From NCBI RefSeq assembly GCF_013167455.1, contig NZ_CP038328.1: DNA of 64,000 bases; one strand, written 5' to 3'. The notes beneath the pieces are model-generated. The model was not told the origin of the DNA, made no database searches, and worked only from the letters and a program-made list of their open reading frames with translations. Made by a program: the position numbers and the translations under genes. This document shows, one piece after another, positions 62,448 to 62,740 of the stretch (position 1 is the stretch's first letter; the number at the start of each line of letters is the position of its first letter). The stretch is from Escherichia coli O157:H7. GTDB lineage: Bacteria > Pseudomonadota > Gammaproteobacteria > Enterobacterales > Enterobacteriaceae.

Positions 62448-62621
62448 ATCGTATTCCCATTTGTAATAGACAAAAAAAAGAGAAAAGTAAGCCGCCCTTT
62501 CAGGTGGATTACTTTTCTCAGGTCTCTAGTAATTGAAATAATAAATAACATGGAAAGCAGAGGTGTTGTGTGAGAGTAATCACGCTTCTGCTTTTTAAAA
62601 CTATTTGATAATACGAATATC

Positions 62622-62643
62622 ACACTGTGATTACGATCACATT
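62622..62643. promoter_or_regulatory. Candidate CRP site in yqcE / ygcW divergent region
   Basis: TGTGA-TTACGA-TCACA (62625-62640), perfect match to the CRP core; TAAAAT -10-like hexamer at 62664-62669 on the plus strand. Confidence 0.5.
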
Positions 62644-62692
62644 AGCAGTTATGTCCTTATGCTAAAAATTATCTCCAGTTACCAGAGATAAT

Positions 62693-62740
62693 GAGAAAGG
62701 TAACTTCCCTCTCGCGGGGGAAGTTACCTTTCTTTTTTTT
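62693..62740 (+). terminator. Strong intrinsic-terminator-like hairpin about 25 nt upstream of ygcW start
   Basis: GAAAGGTAACTTCCC-TCTCGCGG-GGGAAGTTACCTTTC (15-bp perfect stem) followed by T10. Confidence 0.6.

Follow-up and report, generated by a model that had tools for sequence, protein, structure and literature searches.

Our analysis concerns a stretch of 64,000 nucleotides of the Escherichia coli O157:H7 genome (contig NZ_CP038328.1; hereafter the window, in whose numbering positions are given) and, within it, the 318-bp spacer that separates the divergent genes yqcE (minus strand, ATG at 62447) and ygcW (plus strand, ATG at 62766). The spacer is a two-fold set of leader-terminators facing outward. 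In both leaders the same parts follow each other, namely a 5' box AGUUACY, a GAGA-N3–4-GAGAAA purine stretch and a terminator with a 5' arm that can pair with the box; this leader motif is compact, occurs across phyla and is not in Rfam. We propose that the twin leaders are sites of CRP-activated, YgcP-dependent antitermination, which would switch an uncharacterised cluster of sugar or polyol genes, and we put the probability of this reading at about two in three.

The ygcW leader RNA occupies positions 62675–62741 of the plus strand, its start being good to a few nucleotides only, and is matched by our covariance model at 62669–62745 with 82.9 bits. Most of it is an intrinsic terminator (62693–62741), which consists of a hairpin at 62693–62734 with 19 pairs (two of them G-U) and a 4-nt loop, and of nine U residues at 62733–62741. 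The fold of the hairpin, at –31 kcal/mol (z = –7.2), was equalled by none of 200 shuffles. From the end of the U-run to the ygcW ATG there are 24 nt, with the GGAG ribosome-binding site (62756–62759) in between. An earlier note on this DNA, made from the sequence alone, had reported the hairpin and its U-run, and both are present; the 15-bp stem, the T10 and the distance of 25 nt given there have to be corrected to 19 pairs, T9 and 24 nt. It was also right in placing the ribosome-binding site of ygcW 3' of the terminator and in seeing no plus-strand gene upstream of the hairpin, as yqcE is on the minus strand. The remaining parts of the leader are the 5' box AGUUACC (62677–62683), which is complementary to 62699–62705 and forms the upstream strand of the antiterminator helix, the purine stretch AGAGA-UAAU-GAGAAA (62684–62698), which makes up the loop of the antiterminator hairpin and which YgcP may contact, and the anti-box GGUAACU (62699–62705), which has the box and the 3' arm of the terminator as alternative partners. 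In addition, an in-frame ATG at 62691 would extend ygcW by 25 codons (62691–62765) through the terminator, with the T-run read as a run of phenylalanines.

The leader in front of yqcE is a sequence-related twin, absent from the earlier note, at 62472–62535 of the minus strand; its placement is supported by the fold, the model match, a northern blot and Term-seq. Its box AAUUACU lies at 62534–62528, followed by AGAGA at 62527–62523 and the anti-box AGUAAUC at 62513–62507, and its terminator is made of a hairpin at 62519–62480 (–20 to –22 kcal/mol) and eight U residues at 62479–62472, ending about 25 nt short of the yqcE start. The covariance model matches this leader at 62469–62542 with 65.8 bits. 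The two leaders are identical in 49 of 77 columns, and the blocks common to them are 5' CA(G/A)UUAC(C/U)AGAGA, UGAGAAA(G/A)GUAA, UUAC(C/U)UUUCU and the U-run. Their inverted homology runs beyond the terminators, since 25 nt of 62455–62490 and 62724–62758 are 72% complementary. An ancient inverted duplication of the whole leader would be consistent with homology that reaches towards both start codons.

The element before ygcW is transcribed and terminated in vivo, because a short RNA and a Rho-independent 3' end have been published for it. In RNA-seq of strain MG1655, Romero 2014 (Table S5) listed two 'potential novel sRNAs' (small RNAs) in the ygcW–yqcE spacer: ecr2774, 73 nt long, on the ygcW strand, and ecr2775, 63 nt long, on the yqcE strand, the latter being northern-positive with an abundance that varies with the medium. 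On the window they fall at about 62673–62746 (plus) and about 62534–62471 (minus), and thus span from just 3' of each –10 element to the end of each terminator. For this mapping we used the RefSeq coordinates of ygcW and yqcE together with a presumed offset between the old and the new genome coordinates, which puts the 5' boundaries of the RNAs at about 62673–62677 (ygcW) and about 62534–62537 (yqcE). Term-seq of cells grown in LB to an optical density of 0.4 (Adams 2021) gave one 3' end 38 nt before the ygcW ATG (40,640 reads, intrinsic score 15.8) and one 36 nt before the yqcE ATG (1,557 reads, intrinsic score 11.4). Neither is Rho-dependent, and the known-regulatory-element column of the published table is empty for both. 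In our numbering these ends are 62728 (plus) and 62483 (minus), within the 3' arms, 13 and 11 nt short of the ends of the U-tracts, unlike the RNA-seq boundaries, which are at the U-tract ends. By their coordinates, ecr2774 and ecr2775 and the orphan 5'-untranslated-region (5'-UTR) 3' ends of Adams 2021 are the same molecules as the two leaders. The earlier note had named, as an outcome that would speak against it, the lack of both a transcription start upstream of the hairpin and a 3' end near 62740; ecr2774 and the Term-seq end show that transcription does start and stop here.

The conserved pairings fall into two mutually exclusive helices. The first is the terminator itself. Each of the 92 distinct leaders adopts one hairpin fold, on average with –25.6 kcal/mol and about 18 pairs; among them are 68 different upper-stem and loop sequences, and the lower stem is 98% paired. 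The second joins the box AGUUACY to the complementary RGUAACU of the 5' arm. Anchored on the motif, it is 93.9% paired, a level reached by none of 2000 shuffles (mean 87.8%), and shifted registers give 15–54%. On the alignment to the covariance model, compensatory double changes are seen in three of the seven box:anti-box pairs (GC 52 / AU 25; UA 51 / CG 23; AU to GC). The anti-box column 32 covaries with box column 15 (the UA 51 / CG 23 pair) and also with column 91 of the 3' arm (AU 68 / GC 23), as expected of a segment that can pair with either of two partners. In one locus (L028) the three segments have changed together, to GUUGCC / GGCGAC / GUCGCC, and box and anti-box also vary in the E. 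coli yqcE leader (AAUUACU / AGUAAUC) and in Listeria (AGUUGCU / AGCGACU). The nascent 5' part of the leader folds into the box:anti-box helix in 84 of the 92 leaders; in E. coli this antiterminator helix has 7 bp and –6.7 kcal/mol for ygcW, and 6 bp and –1.4 kcal/mol for yqcE. The most conserved sequence of the motif, in Proteobacteria and Firmicutes alike and whether base-paired or not, is the loop NGAGA-N3–4-GAGAAA. This points to sequence-specific recognition of the loop by a protein, because the loop is conserved even where it is unpaired, as in Listeria, where it lies outside the terminator stem.

The motif travels with a set of genes. Scanning for YgcP with one genome per species, we obtained 65 loci, and ygcP is grouped with ygcW, ygcU, yqcE and ygcE in about 50 Enterobacterales as well as in Listeria, Thalassobacillus and Bacillus. 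The same core genes were found in Vibrio hannami, Clostridium sediminicola and Fodinisporobacter; across phyla ygcP is syntenic with ygcW, ygcU and ygcE, usually accompanied by a transporter gene, which is often yqcE. A covariance model trained on 15 leaders gave exactly two strong matches in each of 47 enterobacterial loci, all of them in the ygcW–yqcE spacer, and 95 matches in 0.99 Mb overall, the single match of Thalassobacillus included. Both leaders, with the hairpin whose conservation the earlier note had proposed to check, are kept upstream of ygcW and yqcE in essentially all Enterobacterales. E. coli genomes have a median of two copies of the motif, both unannotated, and the 64-kb window has no strong model match other than the two leaders, the weak ones being on the opposite strand of both leaders. 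Outside the Enterobacterales the motif stands directly upstream of cluster genes in Thalassobacillus (58 bits), in Vibrio, with two divergent copies (71 and 63 bits), in Clostridium (55 and 49 bits) and in Fodinisporobacter (30 bits); Listeria and Bacillus have weaker matches, with a recognisable variant of the motif right after a sigma-A-type promoter. No third copy precedes ygcN-ygcO-ygcP: the queD–ygcN spacer is free of the motif, and the 28-kb O157 locus has two strong matches only. An Rfam scan of 62300–62900 with E values up to 10 returned no family at its gathering score, nor did one at the leader positions of seven other loci.

The earlier note had left the choice between a CRP-driven attenuator of ygcW and a very short unannotated RNA. 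A short RNA with a Rho-independent 3' end does exist, in the form of ecr2774. It could be argued that ecr2774 and ecr2775 are independent trans-acting sRNAs made from CRP-dependent promoters, whose position before ygcW and yqcE is incidental: Romero et al. listed them as potential sRNAs, they accumulate as distinct RNAs by RNA-seq, northern blot and Term-seq, and like many Hfq-binding sRNAs they end with a strong hairpin and a U-run. However, in Enterobacterales, Vibrio, Bacilli and Clostridia the motif never departs from the sense strand and directly precedes a cluster gene. Its conserved single-stranded part amounts to about 15 nt only, GAGA-rich and identical in both paralogues, and covariation between box, anti-box and 3' arm is the signature of a cis switch. 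The attenuator is the better of the two readings because of this sense-strand position upstream of the same genes in four lineages and because of the covarying antiterminator pairing. A purely trans-acting sRNA is thus unlikely, while the leaders might have a side role in trans.

The attenuators would be fed by CRP-dependent promoters. CRP site 1, TGTGAttacgaTCACA (62626–62641, centre 62633.5), is supported by its sequence, by conservation across genera, by in vitro affinity, by chromatin immunoprecipitation sequencing (ChIP-seq) and by PhyloScan: the site was already predicted in 2007 (PhyloScan), CRP bound TGTGATTACGATCACA in vitro with an estimated Kd of 1.7 nM, and the site lies under a CRP ChIP-seq peak in enterotoxigenic E. 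coli. The earlier note had recognised this core, one base to the left of where it lies. The CRP-type site 2, TGTGAgagtaaTCACG (62569–62584, centre 62576.5), is recognised by conservation and pattern match, and its role is suggested by geometry. In a spacer alignment of 23 genera, site 1 is kept across genera and site 2 is kept as TGTGAGAATAATCACG in all of them. The pattern TGTGA-N6-TCAC occurs in the window as four matches at three sites, against 0.41 expected, and two of these sites are in the 318-bp spacer; the third is at 26711–26725 (TGTGACTACCATCAC).

The promoter of the ygcW leader has an extended –10 element, TGcTAAAAA (62660–62668, plus strand), within a conserved (C/T)T(A/G)TG(C/T)TAAAAA block, and that of the yqcE leader has TGtTATTTA (62542–62550, minus strand) within a conserved CATGTTATTT(A/C) block. 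The former is the –10-like hexamer of the earlier note; the TAAAAT given there is actually TAAAAAT and is best read as this extended element. With the presumed offset, the 5' end of ecr2774 maps about 5–9 nt 3' of TGcTAAAAA, and with starts taken from the RNA-seq boundaries and the same offset the distance from the centre of site 1 to the ygcW-leader start is 39.5–43.5 nt, and that from site 2 to the yqcE-leader start is 39.5–42.5 nt. A ygcW-leader start near 62675–62677 gives 41.5–43.5 nt, and a yqcE-leader start near 62535 gives 41.5 nt. It appears from this geometry that each leader has a class II CRP promoter of its own, with the site centred at about –41.5.

The second hairpin with T5 that had been noticed at 62554–62595 is present, and folds on the plus strand at –20.4 kcal/mol, but it does not stand as a conserved terminator. 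It is an Escherichia-specific inverted repeat which flanks CRP-type site 2, a site that the earlier note had not recognised: the loop is the conserved site, and the arms are not kept outside Escherichia (Citrobacter, Enterobacter and others). We rejected the idea that it is a terminator or belongs to the yqcE leader, given the unconserved arms and a position upstream of the mapped start of that leader, and it is probably not a functional terminator.

As to the protein, the annotation of the E. coli cluster includes no DNA-binding regulator. The probable trans factor, which the earlier note did not mention, is the product of ygcP, a gene annotated as a 'glycerol-3-phosphate responsive antiterminator' that belongs to the cluster and lies 5.5 kb from the leaders. 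YgcP matches Pfam PF04309 (G3P_antiterm) over its full length (residues 12–184, E = 1.6e–62), and its nearest solved relative is the 'glycerol uptake operon antiterminator' of Listeria (3KTS, E = 8.5e–28). A PF04309 gene accompanies the motif in every locus examined, across phyla. In Bacillus subtilis, GlpP together with glycerol-3-phosphate overcomes terminators in the leaders of glpD, glpFK and glpTQ. The glpD 5' UTR, as given in a published supplementary table, reads ...ACGGUCC-UGAGA-UGAG-GAGA-GACCACAGC... followed by the terminator, and its parts (box GGUC, GAGA-N4-GAG, and the anti-box GACC with which the 5' arm opens) are in the same order as in the ygc leaders. When both strands of the window (128 kb) were searched with a descriptor of this layout, the two leaders were the only matches (about 1.1 expected); the descriptor also matches glpD. 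When the model trained on ygc leaders was run on a Bacillus contig, the glpD leader ranked first and in register. A metagenome scan for glp leaders returned one Bacillus contig with the glpD leader only, plus eight chance matches. We also noted a Faecalibacterium locus in which a variant of the motif stands between a GlpP homologue, which comes first, and a gene with DAO and BFD-like domains, a pair that we take to be typical of anaerobic glycerol-3-phosphate dehydrogenases.

The ygc leaders are best filed as a probable case of GlpP-type antitermination in E. coli, controlling non-glycerol genes; the locus has a PF04309 gene in the cluster, a Rho-independent terminator in each leader and a conserved element that overlaps the 5' half of the terminator. 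It shares with the GlpP/glpD system a PF04309 protein as the regulator (a putative one here), an intrinsic terminator that lies ahead of catabolic genes within the 5' leader (overcome by the protein in the GlpP case), a short segment near the 5' end which is complementary to where the 5' arm begins, with GAGA-N3–4-GAG in between, and promoters under catabolite control. There are differences, however. The host is Gram-negative, catabolite control is by CRP and not CcpA, two divergent leaders share one spacer, and the targets are non-glycerol genes for a short-chain dehydrogenase/reductase (SDR), FAD-oxidase, electron transfer flavoprotein (ETF), major facilitator superfamily (MFS) transporter and FGGY kinase. 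YgcP is also only distantly related to glycerol-type GlpP, and the match between the RNA models is weak.

By analogy with GlpP, control could work as follows. cAMP-CRP would activate both promoters, and RNA polymerase, having made a leader of about 65 nt, would by default stop at the Rho-independent terminator just before the ribosome-binding site; ecr2774 and ecr2775 would be the products of this termination under non-inducing conditions. The box AGUUACY is able to pair with RGUAACU in the middle of the 5' arm, giving a small antiterminator hairpin with the purine loop. YgcP charged with its ligand, perhaps a phosphorylated intermediate made by the FGGY kinase YgcE, as glycerol-3-phosphate is the ligand of GlpP, would bind the purine loop and stabilise the box:anti-box helix. 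With the terminator blocked, polymerase would read through into ygcW-ygcU-ygcS-ygcR-ygcQ on one side and yqcE-ygcE on the other.

Several points weigh against this scheme. At –6.7 and –1.4 kcal/mol the antiterminators are far weaker than the terminators (–31 and –20 kcal/mol), and the model rests on an unseen stabiliser; because of this difference the terminator should always win without one, a default that matches the abundance of the terminated RNAs. In the literature we found no experiment that ties YgcP to the two leaders, and no binding data for CRP site 2. The covariation is derived from few independent substitution events among related sequences, and the counting tool itself cautions that data of this kind may do better than shuffles even when no structure exists. 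On the side of the GlpP comparison, the ygc model scores the glpD leader weakly (11.4 bits, E = 0.16), and the layout descriptor was written after glpD had been seen, which makes its p of about 1e–3 a post hoc value and its matches supportive, not decisive. The main uncertainty of the ecr mapping is the offset between genome versions, presumably 1975–1978 bp, and this, together with the use of RNA-seq boundaries, leaves the –41.5 spacing accurate to a few nucleotides only. Finally, a simple terminator should not give 3' ends inside the arms, as those at 62728 and 62483 are. Exonuclease trimming, RNase III cleavage, early release or read trimming could account for their offset from the U-tracts.

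If the terminators are conditional, the sensor might be something other than YgcP, either a small metabolite bound by the RNA itself, as in a minimal riboswitch, or another host factor. As Rfam has no family here, a library search is blind to a riboswitch that has not been described. Still, the leader offers about 18–25 nt before the terminator and a 6–7 bp hairpin with an unstructured purine loop, which is too small for a typical aptamer; a PF04309 gene stands alongside the motif wherever we looked, and the only PF04309 protein to have been characterised has a target leader laid out in the same way. We consider such a sensor improbable.

It is harder still to regard the hairpins as constitutive structures that do not switch, such as insulators against read-through or stable remnants of RNA decay resembling hairpins of the repetitive extragenic palindromic (REP) type. 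The spacer of Limnobaculum eriocheiris, with its A9-hairpin-T9, does look like a plain bidirectional terminator. Here, however, no convergent gene end is present, hence there is nothing to insulate, and a constitutive 19-bp terminator with U9, set between a promoter and the only genes that it serves, would silence these for good, yet the arrangement is kept across phyla. With its median of two copies per E. coli genome the motif is no dispersed repeat family, and this view gives no role to a 5' box with compensatory changes. We hold it to be quite improbable. Ribosome-mediated attenuation was rejected as very improbable. It would have termination governed by a leader peptide that starts at AUG 62691, shortly ahead of the terminator, in a frame that continues across the hairpin into ygcW. 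However, other genera, and also the yqcE leader, have AAG, CUG or GGA in place of this AUG, a conserved Shine-Dalgarno sequence is lacking before it, and no stop codon delimits a peptide.

YgcP-dependent antitermination may be taken one step further, albeit tentatively, as a possibility in which we have less than even confidence. The ygc leaders could reveal the RNA code of the whole PF04309 family, GlpP included, in the form of a 5'-terminal helix that closes a GAGA-N3–4-GAG loop and overlaps the terminator. YgcP would then be a distinct branch that senses a non-glycerol phosphorylated metabolite and controls a catabolic island spread horizontally in Proteobacteria and Firmicutes, and the abundant terminated leaders might also act in trans.

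Other antiterminators offer partial parallels. The BglG/LicT/SacY systems rely on a sugar-specific protein that binds RNA and holds in place a small antiterminator hairpin, one which overlaps the 5' arm of a leader terminator. The protein folds are unrelated (CAT-PRD in that family, a PF04309 barrel here), the ygc leaders are without the ribonucleic antiterminator (RAT) sequence, and control would be by a small-molecule ligand and not by phosphorylation through the phosphotransferase system (PTS). To our knowledge, BglG is the only well-studied sugar-specific RNA-binding antiterminator in E. coli K-12. HutP, TRAP and PyrR read short purine repeats or loops (NAG or GAG triplets, or the purine-rich loop of PyrR) and choose between terminator and antiterminator. 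Their resemblance to the ygc leaders is one of RNA code only, as the protein families differ and TRAP and PyrR promote termination.

Earlier work has published CRP site 1, as well as the short RNAs and the Term-seq ends, but the RNAs and ends appear there only as unnamed candidate sRNAs or 3' ends, with nothing said on what they do, what regulates them, whether an antiterminator can form or how far they are conserved. In the searchable literature and in Rfam we found neither a link to YgcP nor the paired leaders with their two CRP sites, the antiterminator helix or the motif shared across phyla, and the literature gave no functional study of YgcP, the ygc genes, PF04309 or the ecr names. If YgcP does act on these leaders, the locus adds to BglG a second sugar-specific antiterminator in E. 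coli K-12, from an unrelated family, and the product of an orphan y-gene would gain concrete RNA targets. Published signals that were left uninterpreted, namely ecr2774, ecr2775 and two strong 'orphan' Term-seq 3' ends, would be explained. It would also give a handle on a ten-gene cluster, through which an unknown pathway becomes experimentally approachable. The leader motif itself may show how RNA is recognised by GlpP-family proteins and could act as a portable switch, a use to which the glpD leader of B. subtilis has already been put.

The MFS transporter gene yqcE (61170–62447, minus strand) heads yqcE-ygcE, and ygcW (62766–63551, plus strand), for an SDR oxidoreductase, heads the operon ygcW-ygcU-ygcS-ygcR-ygcQ. 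The window is oriented at the locus in the reverse of K-12, and in the annotated O157 locus the order is ygcE-yqcE / ygcW-ygcU-ygcS-ygcR-ygcQ / ygcP-ygcO-ygcN. None of the cluster enzymes reached an NCBIfam equivalog cut-off, and no substrate name was obtained in this way. A terminator scan of 600 bases around the leaders gave six terminator-like sites where chance would give 0.6. Beyond the end of the window, the O157:H7 record has ygcS annotated as frameshifted (L001:16790–18126) and ygcQ with an internal stop (L001:18880–19740). Part of the operon behind the ygcW leader may be decaying in the O157:H7 lineage because of these two lesions.

Some loci depart from the common arrangement of the leaders. 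In Limnobaculum eriocheiris (L033:13873–13962) the ygcW–yqcE spacer is reduced to 130 nt with a single A9-hairpin-T9, and it looks as if the inverted leaders have recombined there, with promoters and CRP sites deleted. Clostridium sediminicola has a second copy of the motif within the operon (L069:5265–5335), between the genes for the FGGY kinase and an FAD-oxidase, which suggests an internal attenuator. In Citrobacter youngae (L011) and Klebsiella spallanzanii (L013) an insertion of about 127 nt, resembling the enterobacterial repetitive intergenic consensus or intergenic repeat unit (ERIC/IRU), lies between the terminator of the yqcE leader and the yqcE start codon.

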